IMG/VR virus record: IMGVR_UViG_3300042505_001397
DNA: 64,000 nt
Strand: one strand, 5' to 3'
From: an uncultured virus (IMG/VR IMGVR_UViG_3300042505_001397)
Taxonomy: Duplodnaviria > Heunggongvirae > Uroviricota > Caudoviricetes
The position numbers and the translations under genes are program-made. The notes under the pieces were generated by a model, which was given only the letters and a program-made list of their open reading frames with translations, made no database searches and was not told the DNA's origin. Positions 13,678 to 60,608 of the stretch are shown here, one piece after another (the first letter of the stretch is position 1; every line of letters begins with the position of its first letter).

Positions 13678-14306
13678 TCGAGTGCCTCCACCAATTTAAC
13701 CAGACCATTGTCCATCAATATGCCGTCTTCATAGACCATGCCAATCACTGTGTCTGTGTCATATTTGCAATTCATTATCACATCATCTTGATACTTTATT
13801 GTCGTTCCTGCTGGAACCGCTGAACGCAATGCTGGATAGATATTCAGTGCAACTGTATTCAAAGTGCCTGACAGGATGACATCAGTTGTAATCATGTATA
13901 TTTTCGCATGATTACTGAATTTTATGAAAGTACCTTTAGGTATTTTCTTAGCATTGTTTGTAGCATTTGCACTTATAAGTAATTGAGAAGAGCTTGCAGC
14001 CACAGTATTAAATATTGTCACTGTACCTGTTGCTGTTTTTGCCTGTTTTGCACCATAGTTTTGGGGCATGTAAATCTGTAATGTTTCTGAGAAGCCTTTC
14101 GTAATAAAATTTACCATCAAATCTTGCGCAGAAGTGGAAAGTGGAAACAGTCTTGCTTCCACCTCCCATCTTTGAGTTGCTCTTCTAAAGGTATTTCTTT
14201 TTAATGAAAGGGTATCTGAAACAGTCACAGGTTGATTACTGCGAATAGTGAGGGGTGTCACAAATTCTGCAATAACTGTTGTTCCTTCTAAGATACCGTA
14301 TAGCAT
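13674..14306 (-). CDS. distal tail-like protein
   Basis: directly after the tape measure gene; QRWEV, GTFIKFSNHAKIYMIT, IYPALR. Confidence 0.65.
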   Translation of the reverse strand: MLYGILEGTTVIAEFVTPLTIRSNQPVTVSDTLSLKRNTFRRATQRWEVEARLFPLSTSAQDLMVNFITKGFSETLQIYMPQNYGAKQAKTATGTVTIFNTVAASSSQLLISANATNNAKKIPKGTFIKFSNHAKIYMITTDVILSGTLNTVALNIYPALRSAVPAGTTIKYQDDVIMNCKYDTDTVIGMVYEDGILMDNGLVKLVEALE

Positions 14307-17300: not shown

Positions 17301-20300
17301 AAGTATTTTTCAAAATCAATTTCAGGCACGTTAATACTTTTTAATCCACTATTTAAAGTGTCTAAAGTATTCTTATTAGGGAGCATTTGGTCTAACAAAG
17401 CTTGTTGTCCTTTTATGACTTTTTCTTTGCTTGCTTTTGTTCTGGCGCTGGCAGGATTCAGAGGATCTAATGTATCCATTTCCATTTTAACTTGCTCAAT
17501 CTTTTTCAGTATCGCGTCAAATTGAGAAAGTTTTCCAAAATCTTTTGTTGAATATACCGATGTTTTAAAGCTCTCAATTCTACTAACGGGCTGGCCTGAC
17601 AGCAATGATTCTCTCTCAAGATTTGTTGAATAAGAAGCTTTAGCTAAGGCATTTTCTTTCACAGCATTTAGCTGTTTTGTATATTTGATTTGTTTTAGAA
17701 TTTGCTTATTGGCTTCTTCAATTGACTTAGGTTCTTTTTCCAATGCTTTCTCATACTGACGTCTGATACTGTCAATTAGTGATATGTCAGATGCATCGAC
17801 AGGTAAATCAAGCATTTTCTCGTCTATCTTAATTCCTGCAATACTTTGATAAGCATTACGAACATCTTCAAGTGCAAACTTTGTATCCAAAATAGCTGCA
17901 TAATCAAAAGCTTCTTTACCGTACTTTTTATCAAATTCAACACCAACAGCAATAGCGCCTCGAAGAATCTCTTTTGAAGCTTCTAAAGCTTCTCTATTTC
18001 CTTCACTCATATTTTTGTTGAAATTGTCAATAGCGTCTGTGTAACCATTTGCAGCATTGTTCAAGTCTTCTTGTATTAATTTAGCTTGATCCCTAATAGA
18101 AACTTTTGTTTCTACTTCAGTTATTTTCAAAGGATCTTCTAGTGCAGCTGCCAGACTTTCTTGATATGTCCTGGCCATTGCATCCATTGCAGATTCACCT
18201 TCTCTGAGTGCAATACTATTCTCAGTTAACACAGGTTCGGCAATAACGTCTCTTACTTTTTCCCAAGCTCGAAGCATATATTCTGGAGCGGCATTTAAAT
18301 CAGTGATGATATTTTGGCTAAAAAGCCCACCAGGTCTTTTTGATTTAGTAGTCCCTGTTTGACTATACCTCGAAATATCGCTTGCAGAAAGACTTTTTTG
18401 AAGACTTTCTGTCACTTCTGGTTTTATAGAAGCAACTTTTATCTTAAATGTATCTGGCAGTTTATCGAAATTTTTCTGCAATTCCACATTTATTTTTCTG
18501 GCTAGACTTAGAATATCTTCGCTTTGCTTCTCTTCTGCACGCAATTTTCGCAGACGAGCTAACGCACCTTGTTCAACTAAACTGTAAAAGTCAACAAAGA
18601 AAGTTTTTAAGCTATCAAAAACATCCACAAAAAAGCTATAAATTGTGTCAAGGTTCAATAAAGCAGTACCTATACCTGCAGCCACTGCAAGGAATCCAGC
18701 AATACTTGTAGTCAATGCAGGGATAAACAACACAATAGCAGCAAAAGCAGCTGCAAGAGAAACTATTGCAATTGTCACATATTTTACAACTGTGACTAAA
18801 AAACTGAAAACTGTTTTAATATTGTCCACAAAAGAACGAATTGAGCTTGTTATGGCACCTAAAGGCTCTGCTAATGCTGCTTGAATTGATTCAGAACTAA
18901 ATCTAAAACCTTGACCGGTTTCAGAAGTGTAAGCACCAGCTTCTCGCAACTTTTGAAATTTGACTGCTTTTTCAACCAAATAAGCACTTATAGATTCTTC
19001 TGGTTTTGTCAAAAGTTTCTTGGTACTTTCAGAAATTTCTGCACTTGTTTGGTCTGGCTTTGTATCATACCGGCTCAATAAAGAATCTATCTTGCGTTCT
19101 ATGCTCAGTCTCGATCTCTCTTGTGCTGCAGTTGCGCCAGCTGCTTGCATTGCAACTTCCGCACGTAAGCTGTCATATTGGGAAGCCAAATCAGTTAAGG
19201 CAGATTTCAATGCTTTTTGTTGTATATCATCAATTTTGCTGAAATCTATTTTGAACAAAATATCATCGAATTTCAATTCACTTGGAAGAGCTTCTAAAAT
19301 ACTTTTTAACTCACTTAATTTACCGAAATTGGTGGTTGGTTTCAAACCAAACATTTCTCTGACAGTATCGTAAGCCCATTGCAAATTGTCGGCAAAAGTT
19401 CTGCCAGGGCCGAATAAAGAAACAGCCAAAAGCCCTGCGCCACCGCCTAATAAGCCCAGTTTCAATATCGGTGCAACTATTCCAAAAGCGGCTGAGGCAA
19501 CTGAAGAAAACGCTTCTCTTAAGGGCTTTGTCAACAAAGATATTGCCCTAAAAGGCGAGGTCAAATCTTTGAATACATTTTTCAACCCTTTTTCTCTCAC
19601 AATACTTGACAATCTTTGCATTTCAGAAACCAGGCTGGATTCACCCTTATTTACTGAGTCAATTATTATTTGGCCTACATCGAGTGACTCTTTGAAAGCA
19701 ACCCTAGCCGCAGAAAAAGATTCACTAAATGTTGAGGCTTCTTTCAAAGCATTGATACTTCTGCGCATTGCAATTACTGCTCTTTTTTGCTCTCTTGTAC
19801 CGCCTTTCAGTGATAATATATCAGATACTTGCTTCTTTATACCTACTAATTGATTTTTCACAGCCTCTATTGCAGCACTTTTCCTAAAATAGGTGAACAA
19901 CTCAGACCCAAATTCACGAACTTGTCCAGCACTTTCTCGTATAGTTTTTGTGACTTCTTTCCAGCCTGCAGTTACATCACCCGCAACCGCTGTAGATTTA
20001 ATTGCAGATATTTCTGCTTCTTGACGAAGACTGAAACTTCCTTCTATAGCACGCCTTTTACTTAATATATCTGCGTTATAAGCATTTAAAGACTGTATTT
20101 CTTCTTTGCTCATTCCTTTTGTTTTTCGTTTACTTGGTGTTTCCAAATCAAACGCTTTCAAAATCGCTTCTTTTTCTTGCTGTATTTCAGCAGTTTTTGC
20201 AGCAATTAATCCTTCTTGCGCATTTTTCACAAAGGTATCTCTGCCTCTGCGATATGCATCATTAAGTTTACCTAACGACCCAATTACTGTACTAATAGCA

Positions 20301-23300
20301 ACAGAAGCCAATATAGTTGCTCCAAGACTACTAATAGATTCGGACAGAATTCCAACAGAAGAAGCTGTATTGTCAGCTGCAGAAGCGATACTAGTGACAC
20401 CTGCAGTCAAGACTGTGAATGCCACAACCTTGTTTTTAAGTAACCCGAATAAAGAAGAGACACCATTTAACATTAGACTAAGCCAGCTTGTCATGAATGT
20501 TTTTAATTTTCCAAACGTGCTTGTTGTAAAATCCACAACAGTGGCACCCAAGCCTGCCGTTTGAAATATTCTTTTAAAACTATCTTTGAACTGATTGAAT
20601 AAATCCAGTATATTTTCAAAACTAGATTTCAAAGTAGTTCCACCTAGATCTGTGTTTATAAAAGTATCCCACACATTTGCCAGATCTTCGCCTAATTTTA
20701 CTTTCTTAAATGCCTTAGCGTTTGATGGATCTTCACCTAAAGGTGTATTTAAGAATGCTTCCGCTAAATTAAATTGCTTACTGGCATATCTTTCTGCATT
20801 TAAGCTGAGATTTTTGAATATTTGTTTAAAATCTTCAAAAACTTTTTCCGTGGCTACACCTAAAGCAGAGCTTGCAATAGTTGTGTTGGCCTTGCTTGTC
20901 ATTCTTTTAAATAACGCTCCAACATCAAAAAAGTTTGCCAAAGCACCTGTTGGGTCTAACTTTTTCAAAAGTTCTAAAAAAGCACCATAAGTATATTTAA
21001 CGATTGTAGTCACAAAACCTAATGTTTCGCCCAGTAACCGGTTACCCCCATCTTTTCCTAAAATTGCGTAACCAAGCAAAGGGACAGCAACTTGCGCTGC
21101 TTCAAAGATATTAATACTGTCTAACATTGCAGAAGCAATAGCAGCAGCACCAGCAGCTGCAAACGTTTTATCTTTGAATATATCTAAAAATTTACCGGAA
21201 AAGCTTGCGACACCAATTGAGCCTAATACTTCTGGAATCAAGCCTAGCGTAGCAGATTTCTTTTTTGTCTTTTCTCTTCCAAATAACAGTTCTTGAATAT
21301 CTTTAAAACCATTTTTTGCAAATACTGCGTAAACAGCGGCAATACCTGCTGCAGCATATAAGAGTCTGTTATGAAATAAGCTGAACATACTAGCTATGTC
21401 ATAAACCCATTTCGTAATGGGATCAAAGGATGTCATAAATGTTTCTACAAAATTCGGTAATTCCGCTATAACAATATCCAAAAGTCTTATAAATCCATTT
21501 GCTGCATTGCTTGCAATCAACCCTGCAACATTTCCCAAACCTTCTGCCAGTATAGGCATGGCTGCTGATAAGGCACCTTGTATTGCAAAATCAAACATTG
21601 ATGCAAAATAACTAAAAGCAGCCAGTTTTAATCGCGGACCTCCTGTCAACAATGCAAAGGCTGCAAGTATAGAAGCGGTTAAATTTGAAGCCAACTTACC
21701 TGCAAAATCTCCAATATTAAAATTTTTCATACCATTTAGTAAAACATCAAATGCTCGTGAAAACTTATTATCGGATTTTAAAATCACGTCTGATAGTTTT
21801 TCAAACTCTCTTTTTACAGACAATGCAAATGCTTTTATCGGAGAAACAGCCTTAAATATATTACTTGTGTACGAGATAACACCGTCAATCATGTCTGGCC
21901 AATAAGAATGACCAACAACCTTGTCGTAAATATCAAAGAAATAGCCTTTTATTTTATTAGAGAATTCTTTTATTTTCGAAATAACCTTCGATAAACTGCT
22001 ATCAAGTGTGCTAAGTATTTTATCGAATAAATTGTCAAATGTACTGCTGAACAAGTTTGTTATTTCAAAAGAAAATCCTTTTATGAATTTCTTAAATGCC
22101 CCAAATACTTGTCCATCTCCTCCTATTGAAAAAATGGAAGAAACATCAACTTTTTCAATATTCTTGATAAGGCTAGAAACACTCGAAAAAATACCTCGCA
22201 AAACCTTAAACAATCTTTGTGCAAGAGTTTTACCAAAGGCTTCATTGAACGTATCTCTTATTGAAAAAATCAAGAGCGCTTTTACGCTCAATAAAAATGT
22301 TTTTATACCAACAAGCAGCGGCACTAAATTAGGGGTGATTATATCTCTAAAAATACGAGATACAATAGAACCAAGCATTTTGAATTGACCCAGCAAGTTA
22401 TCTAAAGAAATATTGTTGAACTTAAGCAAGTATCCATCAGCGAGGCCAATTGTATATAAAATTTCTTGTATTTTGTAACCAATACGAGTTAAGTTTCTGT
22501 ATGCGTTATCAAGCACCACAAATTTATCGTCTAAGCGAAGTTTAGATCTCTCTATGTTCAGTAGCTCTAAATTGTCTATAAAATCTTTTAAACTATCTGA
22601 TCTAAATAGATTGGACCACGCTCTCTCAATACCCTTGTCACCAACTCTAAAAAACGATATATACTCATTTATTGCATCTAGCTTGTTGGTAAAAGGTATT
22701 ATAGTTTTTACCAAAACAGCATCAAATATTGCTTTATATTTTTTCATTGTTAACGAAAAAGAAGACAAAGCAACAAATGCACTAGATGAAACAATAGGTG
22801 CTAATGTGGCAAGGTTGTTGTAAAGGACTTTGAAAAAGCCCGCGACATTATAAAGTAACCTAGGTATTTCTTTTGCAGTTTCTTTTAAGTCTACCTTAAA
22901 TCCAAAGGAAAAATTTGCAGCGTTTTTCAATTTGATAAAAGTTGAAGCTAACTCATACATTGCCAAATTATATTTTATAAAGCCTGTTGTATCCACCAAA
23001 TTTGCTTTTACACTAAATATGGAGGAAAGATCTAAAGATTTCTTTGCTATTTTTTTAGATGCATTTAAAAAACCATCAATACTGTCTAATACATTAGCAG
23101 AACCCTTGTCAACGGTTTTTGCAGCATTTATCAAAAAAGCACCGAGGTCTTTTGTCAAGCTAAAGTTCTGGTCAAAAGATCCTAAAAAATATTCAAAAGC
23201 TTGTTTTAAGGCGGCAGTACCTTGTTGTACTGTTGCTGTTGTTTTTTTAAAATCAGCATCAGTAGAGGCTGCCATGTCCTCAATTGCTTTTATCACAGCA

Positions 23301-24049
23301 GAAGATGTGAGTTTACCTTCCGCACCAAATTGCCGTAGCTGTCCTGTACTCAACTTCATGCTTTTGGCAATGCCTTGTCCCAGATATGGTATTTGCTCTA
23401 GGACTGAGTTCAACTCTTCACCACGAAGAACGCCTGACGACAATGCCTGTCTTAGCTGCATAAGACCTGCAGAAATAGACTCTAAACTACTACCAGATAA
23501 CGACCCTGCTTGTGAGATAGTCTTTGTCAATTTTATTATCTGATCGCCTGCAATGTTCTTATCTTCCAAAGATTTTGCCACATCTGCATAAAGACCGGAC
23601 AATTGCTTGAAAGATCCCCTTGTTTCTGTAGACAATTTGTATAATTTTTGCTCAGTAGCTAAAAGGTCATATTGGCCTTTTGTAACTAATTTTAATTTAT
23701 TTTGCACTAAAGTCAAGTCATCACCAACTCTTGCAAAATAAGAAGCCGTACCAAGCCCTGCAAAAACCGTAACAATTCCAGCTACACTTTTTCCAAGTGT
23801 ACTCATAGATCTATTAGTAGTTACTGCTGAGTTGTTTATTTTATTTAATGCAGCCGAGCCTGTGTTTCCAAGCTTAAAAAGTGCATTAGACGATTTATCA
23901 GCACCTTTTGACATAAGGCTTATATTAGAAAATGCCGATTTAGAAATGCTTGCGCTATTGAAAGATGCAGCTAATGATTTATTCAAATCGCTTAAATTCT
24001 TTTTGGCTGATTTTGTATTCAAATCTACGTCAATTAAAACGCCAGACAT
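14306..24049 (-). CDS. tape measure protein (~3247 aa)
   Basis: tape-measure domain QLRQALSSGVLRGEELNSVLEQ; long helical Ala/Leu-rich body; C-terminal FASGG..GPGTGTSDSI.AMVSNGEFVVNA. Confidence 0.92.
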   Translation of the reverse strand: MSGVLIDVDLNTKSAKKNLSDLNKSLAASFNSASISKSAFSNISLMSKGADKSSNALFKLGNTGSAALNKINNSAVTTNRSMSTLGKSVAGIVTVFAGLGTASYFARVGDDLTLVQNKLKLVTKGQYDLLATEQKLYKLSTETRGSFKQLSGLYADVAKSLEDKNIAGDQIIKLTKTISQAGSLSGSSLESISAGLMQLRQALSSGVLRGEELNSVLEQIPYLGQGIAKSMKLSTGQLRQFGAEGKLTSSAVIKAIEDMAASTDADFKKTTATVQQGTAALKQAFEYFLGSFDQNFSLTKDLGAFLINAAKTVDKGSANVLDSIDGFLNASKKIAKKSLDLSSIFSVKANLVDTTGFIKYNLAMYELASTFIKLKNAANFSFGFKVDLKETAKEIPRLLYNVAGFFKVLYNNLATLAPIVSSSAFVALSSFSLTMKKYKAIFDAVLVKTIIPFTNKLDAINEYISFFRVGDKGIERAWSNLFRSDSLKDFIDNLELLNIERSKLRLDDKFVVLDNAYRNLTRIGYKIQEILYTIGLADGYLLKFNNISLDNLLGQFKMLGSIVSRIFRDIITPNLVPLLVGIKTFLLSVKALLIFSIRDTFNEAFGKTLAQRLFKVLRGIFSSVSSLIKNIEKVDVSSIFSIGGDGQVFGAFKKFIKGFSFEITNLFSSTFDNLFDKILSTLDSSLSKVISKIKEFSNKIKGYFFDIYDKVVGHSYWPDMIDGVISYTSNIFKAVSPIKAFALSVKREFEKLSDVILKSDNKFSRAFDVLLNGMKNFNIGDFAGKLASNLTASILAAFALLTGGPRLKLAAFSYFASMFDFAIQGALSAAMPILAEGLGNVAGLIASNAANGFIRLLDIVIAELPNFVETFMTSFDPITKWVYDIASMFSLFHNRLLYAAAGIAAVYAVFAKNGFKDIQELLFGREKTKKKSATLGLIPEVLGSIGVASFSGKFLDIFKDKTFAAAGAAAIASAMLDSINIFEAAQVAVPLLGYAILGKDGGNRLLGETLGFVTTIVKYTYGAFLELLKKLDPTGALANFFDVGALFKRMTSKANTTIASSALGVATEKVFEDFKQIFKNLSLNAERYASKQFNLAEAFLNTPLGEDPSNAKAFKKVKLGEDLANVWDTFINTDLGGTTLKSSFENILDLFNQFKDSFKRIFQTAGLGATVVDFTTSTFGKLKTFMTSWLSLMLNGVSSLFGLLKNKVVAFTVLTAGVTSIASAADNTASSVGILSESISSLGATILASVAISTVIGSLGKLNDAYRRGRDTFVKNAQEGLIAAKTAEIQQEKEAILKAFDLETPSKRKTKGMSKEEIQSLNAYNADILSKRRAIEGSFSLRQEAEISAIKSTAVAGDVTAGWKEVTKTIRESAGQVREFGSELFTYFRKSAAIEAVKNQLVGIKKQVSDILSLKGGTREQKRAVIAMRRSINALKEASTFSESFSAARVAFKESLDVGQIIIDSVNKGESSLVSEMQRLSSIVREKGLKNVFKDLTSPFRAISLLTKPLREAFSSVASAAFGIVAPILKLGLLGGGAGLLAVSLFGPGRTFADNLQWAYDTVREMFGLKPTTNFGKLSELKSILEALPSELKFDDILFKIDFSKIDDIQQKALKSALTDLASQYDSLRAEVAMQAAGATAAQERSRLSIERKIDSLLSRYDTKPDQTSAEISESTKKLLTKPEESISAYLVEKAVKFQKLREAGAYTSETGQGFRFSSESIQAALAEPLGAITSSIRSFVDNIKTVFSFLVTVVKYVTIAIVSLAAAFAAIVLFIPALTTSIAGFLAVAAGIGTALLNLDTIYSFFVDVFDSLKTFFVDFYSLVEQGALARLRKLRAEEKQSEDILSLARKINVELQKNFDKLPDTFKIKVASIKPEVTESLQKSLSASDISRYSQTGTTKSKRPGGLFSQNIITDLNAAPEYMLRAWEKVRDVIAEPVLTENSIALREGESAMDAMARTYQESLAAALEDPLKITEVETKVSIRDQAKLIQEDLNNAANGYTDAIDNFNKNMSEGNREALEASKEILRGAIAVGVEFDKKYGKEAFDYAAILDTKFALEDVRNAYQSIAGIKIDEKMLDLPVDASDISLIDSIRRQYEKALEKEPKSIEEANKQILKQIKYTKQLNAVKENALAKASYSTNLERESLLSGQPVSRIESFKTSVYSTKDFGKLSQFDAILKKIEQVKMEMDTLDPLNPASARTKASKEKVIKGQQALLDQMLPNKNTLDTLNSGLKSINVPEIDFEKYLKIPQAVSDKFIADIEKVKNAKDLFDKSVRDTKAPEIQAEALQKWRDELKGLTTDLENVYKVQVANYKAAPGENAATTARNIEKLIGEAPEPAIAGNKGKLAKFNELVQQRTKAELDLQAEKEKPIVDQARYGMLQSNLEGITKSLEKLKDTSVTTFDAIIGKFDELGFAVDKQMFASFSAKDQKRLKDMGQELVDIETKLNETSGKGLGKDTIKAIADRQENIMETARDIFVKYSAKSGKMMNAALGRLGLGEDAMVATFSKDTMMRLLDVDIFIENMKRALLKTKDISTYIINSQMISEKLKEVSKLKEFFDLRSSFEKSTEEGLLGGAKVAFDKIKSMSGLSNMSFKAFLNIPEESRKKTLEQSSSGEFLSKLNLASLTDDQKAIFNKLAAGADPVQIAKELANVRSPELEVLEDIRTATQKTANITPAESTSNTKDVPVLGTVKTEGSIGSKFIDPMAELKLDEYLKSIPEKAFNDLQKSTISNLGKMRNAFEHYNVSFTDEWLKASDLQAIQATELVTKIGEINKQLTEDVLPDDKIRELKKSVDDYRDQLDKIKEKIDELDMKKAAEDAGKAFSSDVSSGFKEGIKDLVKGKSTFKEFTAGMLDKVTGSITDTFIEGLTKPLTEKAGGMISDLGKGVFSVGSATFSSLFGDKSFLDSFNSTFGQSTDQGVSKNTAKTVTVLERIETLMKTMITGSQLESAGSALSKIPSLFAAASPLAGKLSSFTSDSAKYFTQSGGWDPVSMTNTGTTVGEGMMKMSKADMFSSLSDKSGMPTAVGDSAAKMEAAFTPKFESMANTMETSMSGALSSDSSIFSTLKTSFSEAFTGIGKLFTEGFGSIGNLFSSGGALSGIGNLFKSGGMFSFLGGFASGGAIRGPGTGTSDSIVAMVSNGEFVVNAAATKEHLGLLQALNSGKTPKFATGGLIGDTSAPVMLQPNMVDIKPVTSANAGSQQMINLTITGDISRQTKAEIYRMLPNIAEGVNNHNKERGYRR

Positions 24050-24060
24050 TAAAACCTCCA

Positions 24061-24088
24061 AAATAAAACCCCACGTTAAATGTGGGGT
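24061..24088 (-). terminator. intrinsic terminator upstream of the tape measure gene
   Basis: ACCCCAC/GTGGGGT stem followed by TTTATTTT. Confidence 0.65.
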
Positions 24089-28561: not shown

Positions 28562-29224
28562 TTATCTCCGAGGGAGTTTACCCTCAGTAGCGAGTTTTAG
28601 TACTTCCTCTTGGCTCATTTCAAACAGAGATTTGCCTGAAGAAGAATTTGTGTTTGTAGAGCTACTGTTTGAACTTCCAGTCCCATTTGATACTTTTGCT
28701 TTAAACAAGAAAGAATTATCTTCGGCTTCAGAAAAGACTTTTACAAAATCTTTGATTGAAATACCTGATTTGTGAACCCATGAGCCACTTTCGTTTTGGA
28801 TAAGTTGTCCCACAATTTCCTTACGAGCCATTTCTACAGCTTTTTCATTTCTGAATTGATAGCTTGATAAAGCCGACTGAACATCTCGATCACGAGTAAG
28901 CTCTACATTCCGTCTTTCCAACGCTTCTTTTTCAGCTTTGATTTCAGCCAATTGTAACTCATAAGCTTCTTTGTGTTTACCTTCATCTTGTAAACGCTGT
29001 AATTCTGCTTCTTTTTCTTTTTGTTTATAAGTGGCAAGCTCTTTCAGCACATCGTCTCTTGCACCGTATGCTTTATCTAACTTACCTTTAATGTCTTTGA
29101 GGCTTTCCTCTAACCGTTCTTGTACAAGTTTTTCCACTAAATCTTTTTCAGAATCAGTGTTGCTAGTGGTTCTGTCATCAACATTTGTATTTTCTGGATC
29201 TGTGTTTTCAGTATTTGTAGTCAT
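28562..29224 (-). CDS. capsid scaffolding protein
   Basis: acidic N-terminus, coiled coil, FLFK...G.G linker, short C-terminal helix; start reassigned to MTTNTEN. Confidence 0.75.
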   Translation of the reverse strand: MTTNTENTDPENTNVDDRTTSNTDSEKDLVEKLVQERLEESLKDIKGKLDKAYGARDDVLKELATYKQKEKEAELQRLQDEGKHKEAYELQLAEIKAEKEALERRNVELTRDRDVQSALSSYQFRNEKAVEMARKEIVGQLIQNESGSWVHKSGISIKDFVKVFSEAEDNSFLFKAKVSNGTGSSNSSSTNTNSSSGKSLFEMSQEEVLKLATEGKLPRR

Positions 29225-29322
29225 TGTTTTACCTTGAGTACGACTCGTTATGAGAAAAATACAATTTTTCTCTTGGAATTCATTTAGTATAATTTTGTAT
29301 TTAATTACAACTTCTATTATAC

Positions 29323-29338
29323 GGGTTAATTTAACGGG
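29323..29338 (-). promoter_or_regulatory. 16-bp repeated motif, candidate phage RNAP promoter (copy 2)
   Basis: CCCGTTAAATTAACCC just after the RNAP stop and upstream of scaffold/capsid. Confidence 0.7.
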
Positions 29339-29343
29339 TTTCG

Positions 29344-30775
29344 TTAACCTACTCCATACCATCCGTAATCATTTTTGAAATCTGAAGGAACTTCTTTTAC
29401 AATGTCTTCTTTCAAAAGAATATCAGACTCTTTAAGAACCTTTCCTCCGACAACAGATCTACCTGCAATCGGAATCAAACCAATGTCTATTGCTTCGTTC
29501 AGATATTGATCGTAAAGTTCTTGAGGCAAACCTCTTGCCCTCATTTCATCCAGAGTAGACACTATAACATTTCTGTCCAGTGTTTTTGCATAGATTTTTC
29601 TCAAAGCATTCCTAGCATTCAACATATCAGCTGCATTTGCAAAGAAAGCGTCATGAATAGTGCTCGTGGGAATGTTATTTTCCTTTCCCCATAGATGAAA
29701 ATTTTTAACAATTGTCGCGTCGTTAGAATGATTCCCGTTAACTGCAAAGGCAGTGCGCGCTCTTGTTGAATCGGCAATGTCATTTATTTTGCCGTCCTTA
29801 TTCATCATTTCTTCCCACCAAGTTAGTTCAGTCTTTTGAGGTACTTGCAATATATTGGTGGTCCACTCGCCTTGTTTATTCTTATAAAAAAGTCTTTCTT
29901 CAAATTGTTGTGTGAAATTTTGTTCGATCACTTTACCATCAAAATTAACCCAAGGAACATTTGTCCATGATTTAGGCATTTTATTAGCACTCAGTAATTC
30001 CACTTCAAACACATCTTGCTCTTGAATAAACTTACCTTTTAATAAATTAGAGGGTGTTGGTAATGCAGGCCTTAAGAAAGACAATTTAAAGTATTTACCA
30101 CCTGTACGTCTTGCTTCCGGTGTTGCTGTCCCATAAAGAATGTCATGTAGGTTACTATTTGGCTTATAAAAACTTAAGCGTTTCAAAGCTTTCTCACTTA
30201 AAGATTCTCCAGCTTTTAAGCCTAAAATTCTGCTAAGTGTATCTGGCAAAACATACCCTTTCTTTTTACTGCCAAACACTTTTTCTCTCACAATTGCATT
30301 CCAATTAAAAGCAGCTGTGGATGGTTTTGCATTATTCAGATAGTCTTCTGCAAGTCTACCAAAGAACTTCGTGAAGTCTTTTAAGATAGGTACTTGCTCT
30401 CTCAGATGTTCACTCATTATTTTTGCAATATCTTTAAAATCACCTGGAGTGACAATCCTTTCATAATTTAAAGAAAGTTTCTCCACAAGATCTTTTGTTT
30501 TAGGCTCCAAGAAATAAAGCTGATCTAGAATCTCGTCACCTGGATCTAACCCTTTATTAAAGATGTCTTTAACGTTTTCTCTAAGTGCTCTTAATTCATC
30601 CGCAGTCACTTGATCAAACTTATCGTACCTTGCAATACGAGCTGATATCTCATTGAGTACCGTTTCACGATCTGAAGCCTTAACAACTAACGTATCCTTG
30701 TCTTTGCCAAGAACCTTGGAGAGTTTACCCTCTACATTCAGTGTACCAGTCCTCTCACCAGCACCATAGAAAGTT
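29344..30775 (-). CDS. MuF-RNA polymerase fusion, exon 2 (end of motif B, motif C)
   Basis: frame open from A ACT TTC TAT GGT (TFYG) into the 421-aa ORF; AFAVNGNHSNDA and TIHDAF match T7 RNAP PNFVHSQDG and LIHDSF. Confidence 0.88.
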
Positions 30776-31401
30776 CATTTCATATAGGAATAGCCACTAT
30801 CACCGCGTTTTATGCGCTTGGTGATGGTCGAGTGATTAATGCCAAGCACTCTTCCAGCTTCTCTGGTAGATTCAAAATTACCAAAAGGTGTTATGACACC
30901 TTTTTTAAGATGATGTGCATTTCTACCATCTGCAATATCTCCGATTATTATTTCATCTTTCCAATAGTATCCTTTGTGTAAAGTACTTCTACTACCGGCT
31001 TTCTTTGATATTATTGCCTTACTAACTCCGTGTGCTTCTGCTGCAGCTGCAATAGTGGGAAATGACCCTAGAGGCGTTACGACACCTCTTGCAAGCAAGG
31101 AATTATTACCGCTCACAGCTTCTCTTGCCAGCTGATACATCACAGGTGACAGTCTTATACCATCTCTGCTGCACATTGTTGCATAAGCCGTTTTTAAGCC
31201 TCGTTCTTCTGGGAATAGCTTCATAAGCAACCAGTGCGCTAATAGATGGCATCTTGCATTTAAATATATCAGGTTTTCATAAGTGTCCTTACCACCTATA
31301 CATTTCGGAATTATATGATGTCTCTCATAATAACCGTTTATTGGCTTTGAAACACTACCGTGTTTCTCTATCAGATTTGTATATTGTTTTTCGTAATTCA
31401 T
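30775..31401 (-). CDS. intron-encoded HNH homing endonuclease with two NUMOD1/IENR1-like repeats
   Basis: ERHHIIPKCIGG...ENL..L..RCHLLAH; repeats VTPLGSFPTIAAAA and ITPFGNFESTREAG. Confidence 0.88.
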   Translation of the reverse strand: MNYEKQYTNLIEKHGSVSKPINGYYERHHIIPKCIGGKDTYENLIYLNARCHLLAHWLLMKLFPEERGLKTAYATMCSRDGIRLSPVMYQLAREAVSGNNSLLARGVVTPLGSFPTIAAAAEAHGVSKAIISKKAGSRSTLHKGYYWKDEIIIGDIADGRNAHHLKKGVITPFGNFESTREAGRVLGINHSTITKRIKRGDSGYSYMK

Positions 31402-31641
31402 TTTTATATTCCTATTGTATATATTACTATATAGATCAGACTATCTTTTACGTAAGCATCTTTTAAGAATAATACGTCACCGCGCTTCGAGATTGGCATA
31501 ATCTCTACAGACTTCATCAACTGTTCTAGTTGGTATGTCTTAGTCGTTGCACCTTCAAAAGAGTCCCCTCTTAAGCTTGGCTCAGGATTACCCTTTTGAG
31601 GGCTTCCCTGAATTCACGGTGTTTATACAAGGCAACTTTCT
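30776..31641 (-). mobile_element. group I intron (866 nt) in the RNA polymerase gene
   Basis: exon ends in U and intron ends in G; P1 with U-G pair; 8-bp P10 AGAAAGTT/AACTTTCT; core elements AATTCAGGGAA, AATCCTGAGC, GCAACGACTA, AAGATAGTC. Confidence 0.9.
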
Positions 31642-34600
31642 ACCATGTTTTGGGCTTTTGCAGCCTTTCTGAGGTCCTTCTCTGTAAGGCCCAGTTTCTC
31701 GTTGATCACTTTGAATCGCGGGTCGTTGAATGTCGAAGCTGCAATTTCATCATAAAGCCTACGCTTTTGATTTGTAGGTACAACATTAGATAACTCCGCG
31801 AGCTGTTTGTTACGAGTGGTCAACGCGATAATCTGAGCACCTGATGAAGAAGCATCTTGCTCTAGCGCCAATGAGATTTTATACTCTCTGAGCTTTTCCA
31901 AAGATGCTGCAGTATAGTTACCGCCTAAATAGTTATCAATCTTAGCTTGCTCTATGGCAAATCTGAAAAATTTACCCAGCTCTTCACCTTCAATCATATG
32001 CGTTATGTCAGCTTCAAGGATCGCTCTGATATCAGCAGGTTTCTTTGATAACATCAAATTACCAATTCTGACAATTTCAGGTCTCCACTTTTCAGCAACC
32101 TTTTGTCTTCCAGTGATTGTGAGTGAATTATATTTACCTTCAAACTCATCACTGAGACCACCTAAGAAAGCACCTATTTGATCTTGGAAATCTTTGAATT
32201 CTTCTGGACTGAAATTCTTTGCTTCTGCTGTATTGAGGAACGGTCTAAACGTCTCTCCAGATTGTGGTCCGATAAGACCTCTGTCATATATCCTTGCTCG
32301 ATGATCGATAAAAGGATGATTTGAAAAAGAGCGTCCATTAGCTCGTAACCACTGCATAGCTTTAAAGCGCTCATAAGCATCGCCACGAGATGCGATATAT
32401 TTTCGGTACTCATTACGCTCATCATAGAACTGAGCTTTTCCTCGATCATCTTTGAAGTAGAGTAATTTATCAATGAAATCATAAAAGTCTTCATCCACTT
32501 TGTATTTTGTCTTAGATGCCCATGTTAACGCATCCACCATATTCTTGTCAATAAACTCTTCAGGAAACTCACTAAAACTTGAAGATGATGTTATTGGAAT
32601 TCGTGTATCTTCCAAGCCCAATATACCTCTATCCATCCAATAAGTTTTATAACCTTCTCTGAACAGCAAACGATTATCATCTCTAGTGACGCTGACACGT
32701 AAACCCAAATCCACCTTACGATTCAATTGAGAATATTCTTGTATACGTGGATCTGTGACTCTTATATTATAAGCCATTGTGTCATAATATGGGCCAAAAT
32801 AAGCTCCACTCATGCGACTTTTCATTCTACGCTTTTGAACACCAAACGTTTCGACTTCAAAGAATTTGTCAACTTTTTTACTTTCAAGTATTTTCATGCC
32901 AAGATCAAACCACTGGCGTCTCCAACCATTTAAATTTGCCATGTTGTAAAGATCTCTGCCTAGCATTACAGCAAATTGATCCCTGTCTGGACTATCAGCC
33001 AAACTTAACCTGTGAGCAAATCTCAAATAAAATTGATGCAAGTCATCTTCAGATAATCTGCTTCTGATTTTAATTGGAATTTGAGGATCTAAAAATGTTC
33101 TTAATTCATTAGCGATCTTAGGAGCAACTTTATCTTCCCATTGATTTCTTGCTCTTATATTTTTATAAAAGTTATCGTGCAAATCATCAAGCTGAGTAGT
33201 ACCTAAGACAGGATCAATATAATTGTCTTGAAGTAACCGTTTCATCACATCTGTATCTTTTCGCAGTTGTGTTTCAATTGCATCAGAAACGTTCATCACA
33301 TCAAATTTTATTTGTGATTGAACAACGGCTTTAAAATTACCCCAGACTTCTTTATTATCACGATATCTGCCAAATACAATTCTCAAGTTATCTGCAATGA
33401 CGGCTCTTTCATTTACACTCATTGTGTCTGATAAATCGTTCACAAACTTGGTTATGAATTCCTTGTCTCTGTCCAAGAGCTTATCGCTATCTTTGATCAA
33501 TTGTAAGTTATTGTTGAGTACATAAGTGTTTGGCTGATAAAATCTAACGTCTTCATATCTACCTGTGGCGGGGTTGAATTTAATCTGATCTTCTCTCGGT
33601 GCAGAGGTTAGCATCCTATTTCTAGTAGCTTTCTTATTGTGAAGGAGAGTACCACGATAATTAGTATAGGAGAGTGTTCCTTCAAGCTCTTTAGTTTGTA
33701 ATATGTAGTAATCAAGTAATGTTTTCCTCAATTTATCATTCTGAATAAAATCATCCGGTGTGGTTGCCCATAACTGCATTGCATCTAATTTCGCCTTAGC
33801 GTTGGCAAACTTAATTGTGTCGCCATTTAACTCATAAGTGGAATCTGTTGCGGCTCTCAGTTGTTTAACGCCTAGACTCTCGCCCTTATAATTCACAAAT
33901 TGATCCACAGTCAGTTTACCTGTGTTCAAAAGATCAACCTTTTGATAATCACCTAAATGTTTAAGTTGAATATCTCTCGGTTGTCGCATGAGCCAATCAT
34001 TGTAGCTTTCTTTCAGTGGCGTTTGACCATCATAATAAGCAATTTGCTCTTTTGTTAAACCTTCTAAGTTTCTTCGTCTAACTTGAGCAACACCTTCTAG
34101 CTTAGAAATGTCATCCCAGGATTTAAAAACTGGAACTGTTGTGGAGCGGCAATTAAAGTGCGCAGGAGGCAGATGCCCCGTGTCCCCCATATCATAGACA
34201 TGCCCGTCGCGGTGCGCACACAGAGGTGTCGTCCTCGCGTCCAGAACGGCCACATACTGCCACCCTCTGAGTGCCTTTTCGTTGGCACGGTAAACAGCGT
34301 GGTCAACCTGAGCGTGGACGCTGGTGATTGCGGTGACTACCAAGGATCTAGACTGCATTCTGGTTATATTGTGAATGTTGCCTTTACGAATTTCCAAAGC
34401 AATTTCATTTGTTGTCTTACCTTCAGAAATACCTTTGCGAATTAAAGCTTCAATTCTTTTCTTTTCAGAAGTACTCACACCTGACCAACCAGAAGCAAGT
34501 GTTCTATTTTCAAACAAAGGTTTTTCAAGAACAATCTCTTCCGATATACGTCTTTGCGGTCTTTCTGTGCGCCATATCTTACCCATTGTTGTCTCAACAG

Positions 34601-34877
34601 TTTGATAAGCAAAAGATGCTTGATCTGCTGCAAAATCTAATAGGGAACGCTTTGATGTGTTATGAGCTTCACGATAAGTACGTAATAATTCCTTGTCCAA
34701 AGCGTCTTTGAATTTCTTTGATTTTAAGTCGGACGAACCTACCAACTTATCTAACCTAATAACGTGGCCATCAATGATTACTTCAATCTTATCATTGACA
34801 CCTTTCTCAAATAAGCGTATCATTGCCGCTCTGTCTAGTGCTTTGTCATATATTTCAGTATTTACATTAATGGCCAT
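31642..34877 (-). CDS. MuF (SPP1 gp7-like) domain fused to T7-type single-subunit RNA polymerase, exon 1
   Basis: MuF: YVAVLDARTTPLC..RDG..PPAHFNCRST; RNAP: DHRARIY..GPQ, motif A EQDASSSGAQ, motif B RKAAK. Confidence 0.88.
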
Positions 34878-35564: not shown

Positions 35565-35704
35565 TTCTTTTTCCTCTTTTGTTTAGTACGTTTAGCCACA
35601 TCTAACGCAATTGCAATTGCCTGTTTTTGTGGTTTACCTGATTTCATCTCGGTAGAAATATTCTCAGAGACAGTTTTCTTTGAATAACCTTTCTTAAGGG
35701 GCAT
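35561..35704 (-). CDS. small basic phage protein (47 aa, not in ORF track)
   Basis: [34 protein letters not shown]...KRKKK*; AGGAG RBS; ATGA overlap with next gene. Confidence 0.7.
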
Positions 35705-37268
35705 TATTTGCTCCTATTGCGTTTGCATTTTCTGCATTCTGATCTGTTGGCATCAACAACCTATCGGCAGTTATTTCTTGAATAGCTTCCTCATCATTGT
35801 AGTCAGGCGACACCAAATCATTTTGTTTAAGTAAAACCAACCAAACAGATCTCGGCAACAAACCTTGTTGATACCACTCAGTTGCCAATCGCAACCAATC
35901 AGCTCCAAGAGGAACAGGATTAAAATCTGTGGACAGTGAAAATTCTATTTCAGAAACCCTTAATTGCAAATCGTAACGCCAATTCAGCATAAATACAATA
36001 ACTTGCGCCATGATGTTGCTAACTTTGTTATTCAAGGTACCTAACTGTGCTGTTTGAGCTGCATTTCTGATTTCCAATGCGACACCTGATTGTTCAGTTT
36101 CAGGACTCAACATTCTGATACCAAGCTTAGCCATTTCTTCAATACTGGAAGCAATTGCTCTATCCATGTCTTGAAGCGCTGCTGTCGGAGTTTCCAAAAC
36201 CTTGGCATCATCGCCTTGTCTCAAACGTAACCATGTACCCAAACCACCACTCACAATCTCATCAAACTCTTCATCAGTCATGTCTGAAATGATCACCGGT
36301 GTATACGTAGCAGCTCCATAAAGTAAATGATTACGCCTACTAATTTTGTTGTATAGGCTAATTTCCTTATCAATAATAGCGGCTAACATTGGTTCGACTA
36401 AGTCTATTGAACCATTTAAGGGCCAGGCTGGTATAATACTGATCGGCTCGCCATTTGCCATTATATTGCTGAATGTATCAACCAAATCAAATTTGATTGC
36501 ATTGTTTGCAATTTCAACATTTTGTTTGGCCCCTCCAATCACGGGAACACTGGTGGTATTCGAAGATCTTTGGAATTTTCTTATCTGATATTTACCTTCA
36601 ACAAGCTCATGGACGTACACAGTGTCTTTGAATGTTGGATGGAACTCATTCTCATCATAAGATTCTTCAAACACTCTGACAATTACTCTGTCTAAAATTG
36701 CCTTGCCATACTGATTCTCGCTGACTCTCCAGTTTACAATTTGTTCAGCTTTTCTGAGTACTGGATATGGTTTGAAATTTAACAACTCTTCTTTTGCGTA
36801 TGATTCTGCATTTTCCACAACAGGGTAATCCACAAAAACCCATGCTCTAGATGTTTGTACTTCTTCCCAAAGAGCTGCATCCAAAAATGCAGCTAAAGGA
36901 GAATCATCCTTGCCAAATTCGTTTATGATCCAATCATAAGCTTCTTCAGGAATACCATCAGGTAACTCTAATAAAGGTTTCTTTCTGAGCAATCCACCAA
37001 TAATCATTTTTGCAAATTGAGCGGTGATGCCTGGTAATTCAGCTTCAGCTTTGTAAAATTTGTATTGAGCTTGACTCATACTTGGTGAAAACGGTATCAA
37101 AAGATTTTTAAATGTTAATACATCAATATTTGCATCAAAGTCTTTTACATATTGTTCACCACTGCATACAGCTCTACATTTTTGCCATAAAGGGCTCAAT
37201 GACTCATAAGCTGCATTTGGATCTGCGACTGTTTTAACAGCCGATTGTGCTGCATTTGTTACTGCCAT
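35694..37268 (-). CDS. portal protein
   Basis: 524 aa between terminase and head genes; [21 protein letters not shown] patterns. Confidence 0.8.
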
Positions 37269-44657: not shown

Positions 44658-44816
44658 CGAAATGATCCTCCACAAATTCACACGAAAACATTCTTTTATA
44701 TTCTCGTGGATCTCTAATAAGTGTCTTTGGAGGTTCCACTTTTGGAGGCCAAACAGTGTCTTCACTGTGTTCTTCCGACAACTCCTTTAATTCATGAAAC
44801 ATAGATTCTCTTCTTG

Positions 44817-57856: not shown

Positions 57857-58744
57857 TTATTTAATTGGGCAAATGCCACTTGCACATTCATCATTTGACT
57901 CGTAATCAATGTTTCCGGTCAGTGATGAGATGATTTTTGTTTCACTCACAAGGTCATTGAATTGTTCTTCTGTAATCTCTTCATAAGGAGCTTGAGCGAA
58001 CCCATGATCGGAATGCAATAAGAATGACAATGATTTGTGATTATGCTTGTAGTTTTCTTTTAGATATTGTTTGATATCTTCAAGCTCTTCTTTGCGATAA
58101 TACACTGTACAGCTCACGCTGTTGTCGGACCAGATTGTTTGAAGCTTCTTAATCATTTTCAACTGATCAATTGCAGTCATGTCTTTGGCCAACACGGTGC
58201 CTTCTGGATAACTGAAAGGAAATGTCACCACCACTGTGTTATAATCTTCAGAACCATCAAAGTTCTTCACGAATTCCACGGGATAGCCATTTTCCTTGCA
58301 CACACCTACCAAAGGATGTGATGCAGCAATACGTATTCTTCTGTACATATACTGAGCATATGCAGGATGAATACCTGGAGTCACGCCTGGAAGTAGTGAC
58401 AGTGTGCCTGATGGTTTAACGGTGGTCAGCTTAATTGACCGATTCATGTTGTTTTCTTCCGAATATTCTTCATCAAATATTCTCAAGAACTCATAACATT
58501 CATCCAGCCATTCAATTTGCTCTTCAGTTGCTTGAAGAATACCCGTGACACCGATGCCCATTCTCATGTTCTTGTGAACAATGTGCTCTGTTTCTCTGTT
58601 GTGAGAAGGTAGAAGCAATGAATGTTTGTTAATGCGATATAGCAATTGAGCCACATCAAACAACTCTTCTTTCGACTCAATATTTGGTAAAAAGATTTCT
58701 GCCAAACAGCATGTTTCAAAATTTACCAATGATTGCTCTGCACA
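57857..58744 (-). CDS. nrdJ: class II (AdoCbl) ribonucleotide reductase, exon 2
   Basis: CAEQSL, TCCLAEI, RMGIG.TG, TTVKPSGT.S, SDNSVSCT, C-terminal C..G.CP. Confidence 0.9.
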   Translation of the reverse strand, partial: CAEQSLVNFETCCLAEIFLPNIESKEELFDVAQLLYRINKHSLLLPSHNRETEHIVHKNMRMGIGVTGILQATEEQIEWLDECYEFLRIFDEEYSEENNMNRSIKLTTVKPSGTLSLLPGVTPGIHPAYAQYMYRRIRIAASHPLVGVCKENGYPVEFVKNFDGSEDYNTVVVTFPFSYPEGTVLAKDMTAIDQLKMIKKLQTIWSDNSVSCTVYYRKEELEDIKQYLKENYKHNHKSLSFLLHSDHGFAQAPYEEITEEQFNDLVSETKIISSLTGNIDYESNDECASGICPIK

Positions 58745-59567
58745 CATTTTGTTACTCGATAAATCGAGGGTTGAATATTTCTATCAACCTCTATATATTA
58801 CTATATAGTTCAGACTATATCATCATCCATCTCTGGAGCTTATCGTCCGATTTTATAATAAAAGCTTTCAAATATAAAAGGATGAACAAGTGCTTCAAAC
58901 TGTTTGTTAAAATGTTTTGGAAGCGTCAATCCATATTTATTTGTGGCTTGCTTTTCCACATTAAATTGGATGTTTAGTTTTTCTTTTATAGCGCCCGCTA
59001 ACTGATAATTATCACCATAACTAAATCCGTTTGTATGCAATCTATAAAGAGGACTTTCCTCACCAGATGCTAAGATTATCTTTTTTCTGCTACCATCTGC
59101 CATTAATATTATGGCCAAGGCTTCTGCATCTAAAAGTGTTAGCATATGAGGTTCTATTACTTTTTTACCTTCTAAATAAATTCTGTTTCGTATTTTAGTT
59201 AATTTAGGGTGCGCTTTAGATTGTACACGAATTTGTTGTCGTCTATTACAACCATCATGTATATTCAAAGCTGGTTCCCAAATTTTATAGCCTATTTCAG
59301 CTGCTTCTAAAGTAAGAGCTACTTCATGTATGTAATCACTATTTTCCTTTATCATTGTGACTGATAGTCGGGAATTGTGGTTTTCACCCCGTTTATCTAA
59401 GTATCCATCAAATGTTGAAAAGTAATATAATCTCTTACTAATGTCTTTATTATTAATCATAGTCGTTGCACCTCTTTAATTAAAGTTGGCACAGGATTGC
59501 CTAATAGGTTTCCCTGTTTTTAGATAAGTTTTCTATACTAATTACTCAGTATAGCCCCAATGCATTT
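58745..59567 (-). mobile_element. group I intron (823 nt) in nrdJ
   Basis: removal joins NP to CAE; exon ends in U and intron ends in G; P1 CCCU/GGGG; P3 CTTATC/GATAAG; P7 GACTA/TAGTC. Confidence 0.9.
58840..59460 (-). CDS. intron-encoded LAGLIDADG homing endonuclease
   Basis: two motifs YYFSTFDG and LAIILMADG; LHTNGFS. Confidence 0.82.
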   Translation of the reverse strand: MINNKDISKRLYYFSTFDGYLDKRGENHNSRLSVTMIKENSDYIHEVALTLEAAEIGYKIWEPALNIHDGCNRRQQIRVQSKAHPKLTKIRNRIYLEGKKVIEPHMLTLLDAEALAIILMADGSRKKIILASGEESPLYRLHTNGFSYGDNYQLAGAIKEKLNIQFNVEKQATNKYGLTLPKHFNKQFEALVHPFIFESFYYKIGR

Positions 59568-60608
59568 AGGGTTATAACCTTCTACGTCTGGATCTGGGTA
59601 CTCAAATTCTCCAAGTCTACCCATTTTACGTGAAAGATTCAGGTTAATAAGGCCATAGGGTTCAGAACCTCCTTCATAACCTCTCCAGAAATACTCATGC
59701 AAGTCATCGATATCATCACATATTACACTGTTATTGCTCATTGCACGATATGATGGTATATTTCCCATGCTCCAGTTTTTCGCCAGTAAATACTCAACGT
59801 CATCGGGATCACCAATTGCAATTTGAGCACTTCTACGGACGTTACCTGCAACAATGATTGCGCCAATGATATTCATCATGTCCAATGCATCGACGGGTCT
59901 TATTTGTTTACCTCGTTTCTTTTCAAGTATTTTAGATATTTCCCCAATGCCCCAACATAGGTCTTCTGGCCCACTTGCAACGCCTCCAAAGCCCTTGATA
60001 GGTGTGCCTTTACCTCTAATCGCTTGCGTTGAATATGTGAATGTTCCATTGTCCTCTGTCTCACTCAAAAATGCCGATTTCAAAACTTTGCCCAAGAACT
60101 TTACCCAACCTTCTCTTGAGTCAGGGATGATGAAATCTGCACCACCGTTGTCAATTCTTGTCGGAGCTTTGAACCACTCTTTGACTGCAGGCAATTTCTC
60201 CACATTCTTTCTCTGAATGTTGAAACCCACTCCACTTCCAAGAGCCAACATGTCCATTGCCCATGTGAATGGTCTCACTGGATTGTCGATGGTCACAAAA
60301 GCACAATTTTGCAATGAAGCCAACCCATACCTGTTCACGGTTGCTGTACCAGCTTGCCACCAATAGCGACCTGCTACAGAGCCTTTTAAACCCAATAAAT
60401 GTGAAGCCAGTCGATATTCTTCGTCCTTGGTAAATCCACAGCCAAATTGTTCATCACACGCATTGATCACACGCAGCACTGTGTCAGGAAACTCTTCAGT
60501 TTCTTCTGAGACCTCATTGAGCTTTCTTGCATAAGTTCTTTTGTAAGTCAAGTATCCAACCGTTGACCACGGGGTTTCAATCTTCGGCAATTCTTCTTTT
60601 GTCAACAT
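59568..60608 (-). CDS. nrdJ: class II (AdoCbl) ribonucleotide reductase, exon 1
   Basis: YKRTYAR, AGR..W, LQNC, GSGVGF, DSREGW, IKGFGG.ASGP, GNVRRSA, GYNP. Confidence 0.9.

Follow-up and report, generated by a model that had tools for sequence, protein, structure and literature searches.

The window analysed here is the whole 64,000-nucleotide (nt) stretch of IMG/VR record IMGVR_UViG_3300042505_001397, from an uncultured virus of the Caudoviricetes, and all its genes lie on the minus strand. Among them is a gene that joins a MuF head-morphogenesis domain to an RNA polymerase (RNAP) of the single-subunit, T7 type, referred to below as the MuF-RNAP gene. Its polymerase part is interrupted by an 866-nt element, predicted to be a group I intron, which itself contains an open reading frame (ORF) for an HNH endonuclease. 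The gene and its interruption are laid out as follows, with lengths of protein in amino acids (aa).

34137..34457, minus strand: MuF (SPP1 gp7 / Mu F) head-morphogenesis domain (PF04233 Phage_Mu_F, aa 141-247, 48.8 bits, cut-off 29.6)
31642..34877, minus strand: first exon (exon 1) of the MuF-RNAP gene, with 1078 codons and 2 nt, within the ORF 31623..34877
31623..31625, minus strand: in-frame UAA that ends exon-1 translation, six codons inside the intron and directly before P3
30776..31641, minus strand: predicted group I intron of 866 nt, opening directly behind the U of the 5' splice site and closing with the terminal G
29344..30775, minus strand: exon 2 of the MuF-RNAP gene, 1 nt, 476 codons and the stop, encoding what is left of motif B together with the polymerase's C-terminal half

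Exon 1 ends in ...CAAAACATGGT at 31642 (final letters ATGGT), the intron begins with AGAAAGTT and ends in ...GAAATG, and exon 2 opens with AACTTTCTATGG at 30775 (AACTTTC). Joining the exons by script yields a single open frame of 1555 aa whose junction reads ...AQNMV|TFYGAG..., with the intron lying inside the codon for V1079. An earlier note on this DNA had placed the frame break at ATG GT|; its coordinates and letters are correct and apply to the minus strand. In the unspliced sequence, exon 1 is followed by six further codons and a stop, giving a product of 1084 aa (34877..31623), and exon 1 alone is without the Y and G of motif B and without the IHDAF motif. The ATAAA that holds this stop is invariant in all nine introns aligned below. 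The exon-2 frame that is open in the unspliced sequence (30609..29344, minus strand) carries the RNA_pol match, and its earliest possible start, a GTG at 30609, entails the loss of 55 residues, including the invariant FYGAG block.

Alignment with intronless homologues, a check that the earlier note had proposed, bears out the joined frame. Among the best 120 of 455 homologues with E <= 1e-3 (from 7998 scored candidates), 75 are full-length proteins of 1500-1600 aa, typically ~1540-1560 aa, that run uninterrupted through the joint. A further three are longer with an intact C-terminus, seven are N-truncated and four are of other kinds. Of the rest, 15 end at the window's intron site after five residues (E/D/K-C/S-C-H/L-V/E) contributed by a like intron start, three end past the site with a different read-through, eight end in ...RKAAKA, four codons upstream, and five end in ...AVNG. 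In the uninterrupted proteins the joint is ...AQNMVTFYGAG..., and its F, Y and G do not vary across 29 sequences. Both exons of the window are open, and their protein is 89-100% identical to its intact relatives.

The interruption could also be read as a naturally split gene, in which a free-standing HNH gene is inserted and the halves are translated separately as a two-chain polymerase. Two-chain T7-like polymerases exist, the family profile weakly touches the N4 RNAP2 chain 6dt7_B (E 0.21), and annotations give the pieces as separate genes. In GenBank JF412302.1, the record of EBPR siphovirus 1, they appear as gp47 'head protein', gp48 'HNH endonuclease' and gp49 'hypothetical protein', three coding sequences with no intron feature, as had been expected of automated annotation. 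A split gene is nonetheless very improbable: the frame is restored to the base, the full-length homologues counted above are single chains, the GTG start would forfeit the FYGAG block, and a complete, covarying ribozyme lies exactly between the pieces.

The assignment to the T7-type polymerases draws on several comparisons. PF00940 (RNA_pol) matches exon 2 at 27.0 bits (cut-off 22), with a weak match in exon 1 at aa 990-1058, and matches the homologue P0115 at 48.3 bits. Alignment of the family profile with T7 RNAP 394-575 by hhalign gives E 5.9e-5 and 65% probability and takes in motif A, with FDGSCSG of T7 opposite EQDASSSG. In a colinear local alignment, RKAAKAQNMVTFYG stands opposite T7 R627-G640, K1074 corresponding to K631 and Y1082 to Y639; exon 2 aligns to T7 763-837, with IHDAF opposite T7 IHDSF. 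Local alignments to T7 place the catalytic motifs A, B and C in order. Searches of the PDB returned 0 matches by phmmer with the homologue P0002 and, with the family profile, non-significant matches to T7 and N4 RNAP2 (E 0.16-0.27). When the short segment of motif B was tested by itself, 16 of 300 shuffles scored as high, which is not significant. Placement of the intron at the equivalent of T7 M635/T636, a region that we take to be motif B in the O-helix, is supported by colinearity and agrees with the location first proposed. The polymerase part of the joined 1555-aa product is free of cysteine; the product's only two cysteines, residues 220 and 243, belong to the MuF part.

Ribozyme core and splice-site pairings

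The elements that would build the catalytic core and align the exons are these.

31418..31641, minus strand: ribozyme part, with the P1 3' strand, P3, P4, P5, P6/P6a, P7, P7.1, P7.2, P8 and P9 (GUAA loop) and no P2, from the Rfam alignment and pair counts
31627..31648, minus strand: P1 hairpin, with exon strand ACAUGGU, loop AGAAAGUU and internal guide GCCUUGU
30768..30775, minus strand: exon-2 strand of P10, AACUUUCU, whose partner is intron 31641..31634

The ribozyme forms the first 224 nt of the intron. A search with group I models, suggested earlier together with the claim of a group I core, returns Rfam RF00028 (Intron_gpI) at 31714..31417 (minus strand) with 64.6 bits, above the gathering score of 50 (E 4e-14). 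This match spans the full model (1-253) and is the sole above-threshold Rfam match in the window. Between P1 and P3 there is AUAAA only, and P9 is UAUAUA-GUAA-UAUAUA, its last base at 31418. Phage introns of subgroup IA (IA2-like) have additional P7.1/P7.2 hairpins between P7 and P3', and P2 is usual in the T4 td and Twort introns. On the presence of P7.1/P7.2 and the absence of P2, we tentatively take the window's intron to be IA-like.

Relatives of the intron were found with a 25-letter pattern over the 5' junction, which occurs in 10 viral and three metagenome loci. All 13 contain a complete intron, of 860-874 nt, and together they comprise 10 distinct sequences including the window's copy. 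Nine distinct introns were aligned (L038/L046 were left out) and scored against a structure of 68 pairs drawn by hand from the window, covering P1, P10, P3, P4, P6, P6a, P7, P7.1, P7.1a, P7.2, P8 and P9; P5 and the inner part of P8 were excluded from the count because of MAFFT misalignment.

Standard pairs occupy 97.0% of 610 cells. Both sides change in 21 of the 68 pairs (47 cells), a level reached by 0 of 500 shuffles, and these shuffle figures overstate the significance, as the aligned rows are related and the structure was drawn from one of them. Sliding the 3' partners by 1-3 columns, as a control, lowers the paired share to 29.6-46.3% of cells and leaves 0-3 double-changed pairs. The double-changed pairs include all five of P6a, all four of P7.1, three of five in P7.1a, three of six in P7.2 and two in P3; P6a, P7.1, P3, P7.2 and P9 are each double-changed in several lineages. 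P3, P4, P6, P6a, P7 and P8 are kept across the nine sequences, P7 being invariant in all of them.

P1 pairs exon bases ACAUGGU (31648..31642) with the guide GCCUUGU (31633..31627), with a terminal U.G and one internal UxU mismatch. The splice-site U.G, formed by U31642 and G31633 (pair 20-29), is found in all nine sequences. The terminal G of the intron, G30776, is also a G in the nine aligned introns, in L038/L046 and in EBPR siphovirus 1. The mismatch is confined, within the nine, to the window and L044, the other seven having U-A, and it appears again in EBPR siphovirus 1.

P10 takes up the entire loop of P1: the eight nt of the loop, AGAAAGUU (31641..31634), match in exact reverse complement the eight bases with which exon 2 begins, AACUUUCU, and at fixed positions the chance of such a match is 4^-8, or ~1.5e-5. 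All eight pairs form in all nine sequences (100% of cells paired), and in L038/L046 P10 is preserved through two G.U pairs. In seven sequences pair 25-901 is U-A; in the other two, the window and L044, it is A-U, by way of a synonymous ACU/ACA change in the exon. One other pair is either G-C or G-U. The perfect P10, the U-G pair and the terminal G had all been named in the earlier note. A short hairpin joining positions 5 and 12 of the intron was considered as another explanation of the P1/P10 variation and was rejected on the U found at both positions in EBPR siphovirus 1.

No point was found in favour of an assembly artefact or a chance Rfam match, and the probability of either is close to nil. 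DNA contigs from two lake runs cover the locus, one from X1 over 29344-31785 and two from X3 over 30007-30921 and 31090-32365. They bridge the junctions, and the intron arrangement is therefore not an assembly chimera. An identical sequence occurs in an independent viral contig (L001/L037), and the 10 distinct relatives from 13 loci are accompanied by one GenBank record. The nearest record, a 7-kb fragment (G001), showed no intron match, and the whole gene, compared by megablast with records of cultured phages, gave no match.

The endonuclease gene and the closing helix

The remainder of the intron is largely coding, and is framed by two complementary strands.

30775..31401, minus strand: intron ORF of 208 aa, HNH nuclease with NUMOD1-type DNA-binding repeats, from Pfam
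31407..31415, minus strand: 5' strand of the closing helix, AUAGGAAUA, with the Shine-Dalgarno GGA of the HNH gene, 2 nt past P9 and 5 nt ahead of the AUG
30784..30792, minus strand: 3' strand of the closing helix, UAUUCCUAU, within the final HNH codons, 7 nt ahead of the terminal G

The ORF of 627 nt matches HNH (PF01844, 31.6 bits, cut-off 21.4) and NUMOD1 (PF07453, 27.4 bits, cut-off 22.8). An I-HmuI_NUMOD-like profile scores 16.9 bits on the HNH protein, under its cut-off of 27, and a PDB sequence search with this protein found the generic HNH motif only, at E 0.006 or worse. The UGA stop straddles the 3' splice site (UG|A) and is completed by the first base of exon 2. The ORF is intact at 208 aa in all eight sequences tested. 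Of 28 pairs, 15 have unsaturated dS, and in these the ratio of nonsynonymous to synonymous substitution rates (dN/dS) is 0.04-0.12, the other 13 being saturated; for the window and L044, dN is 0.012 and dS 0.29. By these rates, the endonuclease is maintained by purifying selection.

The strands AUAGGAAUA and UAUUCCUAU form a perfect 9-bp helix, and helices of at least 9 bp arise in 18 of 5000 shuffles of the 3' segment. A helix of 6-10 bp covering the ribosome-binding site was found by script in eight of nine relatives; in the ninth, L047, for which the script mis-set the ORF start, a 6-bp helix (AGGAGU/ACUCCU) is seen by eye in the alignment. The helix covaries, with GGAAU/AUUCC in four sequences and GGAGU/ACUCC in five, A-U being exchanged for G-C by way of a synonymous UAU/UAC codon. 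In a cross-table, each helix class pairs best with the 3' ends of its own class, and the helix is found in EBPR siphovirus 1 too. The 627-nt ORF is, on this prediction, the loop of a P9.1-like hairpin that places the 3' splice site, far away in sequence, next to the core.

These features make it very probable that the element is a mobile, self-splicing group I intron with an HNH/NUMOD1 endonuclease gene, lodged in the MuF-fused T7-type RNAP of an uncultured lake siphophage. Judged from its sequence, it is a known kind of element, complete and well-formed, in a new host gene, a T7-type RNAP; splicing, endonuclease activity and virion packaging are predicted on the same basis. The intron and its splice pairings stand as the earlier note had them, while the strand, the 208-aa HNH ORF, the closing helix and the MuF fusion had gone unmentioned there.

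Several points weigh against a functional intron of this kind, beyond the relatedness of the aligned rows given above. The P10 covariation probably reflects a single evolutionary event, separating the window and L044 from the others, and because of this it is supportive but thin. The UxU mismatch in P1 may make splicing weaker in the window. Contigs of the metatranscriptome runs X19 and X22, 95-99% like the exons at 30430-30618 and 31926-34877, reach neither the intron nor a junction, and no joints were reported for them; they provide no RNA evidence for the joined form and are uninformative either way. Endonuclease activity, its target and the packaging of the polymerase are all points that we infer.

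Some of these observations would also suit a decayed, non-splicing relic, in which the MuF-RNAP gene is a pseudogene and only its MuF part is used: the mismatch marks the window's lineage, and spliced RNA is not seen among contigs that cover no junction. The mismatch is, however, common to the window's lineage and the separate lineage of EBPR siphovirus 1, and is therefore tolerated in two lineages. All other core pairs are intact, including the invariant P7, the exons are open and close to their intact relatives in protein sequence, and the endonuclease is under purifying selection on the substitution rates between the window and L044. Decay is thus a very unlikely account of the locus, and an active self-splicing intron remains the preferred one.

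Insertion sites in related loci and other elements of the window

The distribution of introns in the family was surveyed with Rfam and with tblastn, in which the joined protein served as query on 36 related viral loci. There are 19 Rfam group I matches, in 14 of the 36 loci, and Rfam-supported introns occur at six sites, with up to three per gene.

After codon 877: Rfam-supported intron in L032 and L033
After codon 1041: Rfam-supported intron in L030
After codon 1075: Rfam-supported intron in L002
At codon 1079: Rfam-supported intron at the window's site
After codon ~1081: Rfam-supported intron in L019
After codon 1426: Rfam-supported intron in L002, L009, L010, L011, L015 and L019

For gaps at 1041 and 1075 in L030 and L033 there was no Rfam match. 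In L033, an IMG/VR contig of 69.5 kb, the polymerase half is broken at no fewer than three points, following codons 877, 1041 and 1075, with an Rfam match only at the first (99.6 bits). Motif B is spanned by 29 loci, of which 17 are uninterrupted, eight have an insert at 1079, one at ~1081 and three at 1075; these loci are not independent lineages, L009/L010, L003-L005 and L025/L026 being near-duplicates. At site 1079, the ribozymes fall into one sub-lineage with the window's HNH-bearing form (L001, L015, L016, L034) and a second, diverged one with the ORF-free introns of L009/L010 (261 nt) and L012 (342 nt), and with L035 (884 nt).

The exon DNA of L002 is 95% and 92% identical to that of the window (~98-99% in protein), and it has no intron at 1079; an HNH intron lies instead after codon 1075, 12 nt upstream, and another intron after 1426 (L002:2225-3103, L002:4157-4890). 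The HNH ORF at codon 1075, of 210 aa, has an N-terminal nuclease part similar to the window's and a different C-terminal part. In the 45 nt of exon adjoining the L002 junction, 31 of 45 positions match the window (69%), as against 42-45 farther off. This divergent patch looks like a co-conversion tract.

L013:5276-5671 shows a gap of ~397 nt at protein positions 1103-1108, in the same frame on both sides and with no Rfam match. In 12 loci (L006:4940-5356, L012, L014, L019, L021-L026, L034, L035), ~417 nt in frame (~139 aa) replace GGNYTAAS just upstream of motif A. A mini-intein was considered for this insertion (near aa 984-988) and rejected: there is no Pfam match, no N-terminal Cys/Ser and no C-terminal His-Asn. 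It is read here as an extra protein segment, and it accounts for the homologues of 1655-1699 aa. One RNA contig of run X19 is unlike the window below 31926 and fits a variant with the extra in-frame segment of L006 and L034.

The gene order around the MuF-RNAP gene is terminase (43311-44765), portal (35694-37268), MuF-RNAP, scaffold (28562-29362), major head protein and a tape measure protein of 3251 aa. The phage is a long-tailed siphovirus, and the polymerase is probably packaged in the virion. The tape measure gene (14306-24061, minus strand) implies, by its length, an unusually long tail.

A second group I intron apparently splits the ribonucleotide reductase gene of the window (57857-60608, minus strand). 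The reductase parts are an N-terminal ORF at 60608..59538 and a C-terminal ORF at 58747..57857, matching PHROG 367 at positions 26-370 and 388-697. Between two Rfam halves lies a 206-aa LAGLIDADG-type ORF (59460..58840); the halves score under the gathering score of 50, at 45.9 bits (59577..59445) and 38.3 bits (58921..58791). At 62457-62927 (minus strand), between the primase/helicase and exonuclease genes, a 156-aa ORF matches the homing-endonuclease family phrog_7363 (E 1e-11) and looks like a free-standing endonuclease gene.

Proposed mechanism and known systems

In the proposed mechanism, GTP-initiated splicing would join ...AUGGU to AACUUUC... and restore the nucleotide-binding helix of motif B. 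The sequence itself shows the arrangement for this: P1 holds the 5' exon, with the U.G at the cut, the 8-bp P10 formed from the whole P1 loop holds the 3' exon, and the looping of the endonuclease ORF out of the 9-bp helix carries the remote 3' splice site up to the core. Without splicing, only the 1084-aa MuF protein and half a polymerase would be made, and active RNAP would depend on the reaction. The polymerase may be packaged in the head via its MuF part.

The closing helix would at the same time bury the ribosome-binding site of the endonuclease gene, so that the splicing fold blocks endonuclease translation, and a ribosome completing the HNH ORF would unwind both the helix and the splice site. 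Since the ribosome-binding site is buried, the last codons supply the other helix strand and the stop spans the splice site, the splicing fold and endonuclease translation would be mutually exclusive on one RNA. The endonuclease itself is expected to cut intron-less alleles near AACATGGT|AAC in co-infecting relatives, whose repair would copy the intron in (homing); the purifying selection on its ORF and the divergent exon patch beside the rival intron of L002 are indirect evidence for such cutting.

A wider role can be sketched by analogy with PhiPA3 gp210 and PhiKZ. The window and L002, with closely similar exons, have different HNH introns 12 nt apart. Motif B of this capsid-linked polymerase may be a battleground of rival introns in phage-phage competition, each destroying the other's target, protecting its carrier and cutting the polymerase gene of co-infecting relatives. 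This is a tentative idea, possible but rather doubtful on the present evidence.

The findings add the T7-type single-subunit RNAP to the phage genes invaded by group I introns. They also bear on annotation: pipelines break up a lake-phage protein that is abundant, calling one piece 'head morphogenesis protein' and the other 'hypothetical protein', and so hide both the polymerase and the fusion. Introns at six catalytic-motif sites, with ORF-free (261-342 nt) and ORF-bearing forms at one of them, constitute a natural experiment, and a covarying helix links translation of the endonuclease to folding of the ribozyme. The family could thus serve as a compact system in which to study how introns home and compete, and how splicing conflicts with translation. 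Literature searches found no report of a phage RNAP of the single-subunit or T7 type that contains an intron, nor of a MuF-RNAP fusion; the intron described in PMC5746245 lies in a td gene.

The closest known counterpart is EBPR siphovirus 1 (JF412302.1), with an intron of the same family at the same codon of the same MuF-RNAP gene. Its ribozyme is 76% identical to the window's over 228 nt and its HNH protein 74% identical. It shares the U.G pair, the terminal G, P10 and the helix that closes over the ribosome-binding site, but P9 and P7.2 are rebuilt in G+C-rich pairs.

At the level of the core, the DNA polymerase intron of Bacillus phage Bastille (AY256517.1, JF966203.1) and those of its relatives CAM003, Hoody T and Anthony are 77.7% identical to the window's from P3 to P7 (113 nt, E 2e-15). 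The Bastille endonuclease, I-BasI, belongs to the HNH family. The two introns have in common a phage polymerase gene as host and an HNH-family endonuclease. They differ in that the Bastille host gene encodes a DNA polymerase and in that the periphery and ORF cannot be aligned by blastn. The type of the Bastille endonuclease is also cited in the reference list of PMC11620839.

PhiPA3 gp210 combines a group I intron and an HNH homing endonuclease in a conserved region of an RNA polymerase beta-subunit gene (Birkholz et al. 2024, PMC11620839). The enzyme concerned, from jumbo phages, is multisubunit and of the two-barrel kind (PMC11620839), in contrast to the single-subunit T7-type enzyme of the window, and a role in phage-phage competition, against PhiKZ, is shown for the PhiPA3 intron (PMC11620839), whereas it is conjecture for the window's.

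For the protein, a parallel is gp50 of the podovirus N4, described in extracts of PMC5512222 as a T7-type polymerase module carried in the virion, ~3500 aa long and with no MuF domain. The extracted text restricts N4-like RNAP modules to N4-like phages and mentions no MuF-RNAP fusion (PMC5512222). Virion carriage is shown for N4 gp50, whereas for the window's polymerase it is predicted.

The T4 td intron, of type IA, offers a precedent for the regulatory layout. An RNA structure covering the ribosome-binding site restrains translation of its endonuclease, I-TevI, and an early in-frame stop halts exon-1 ribosomes. Its ORF lies in another loop and the endonuclease is of the GIY-YIG type. The window's intron differs from that of T4 td in that the ORF extends to the 3' splice site, its stop being completed by a base of exon 2.

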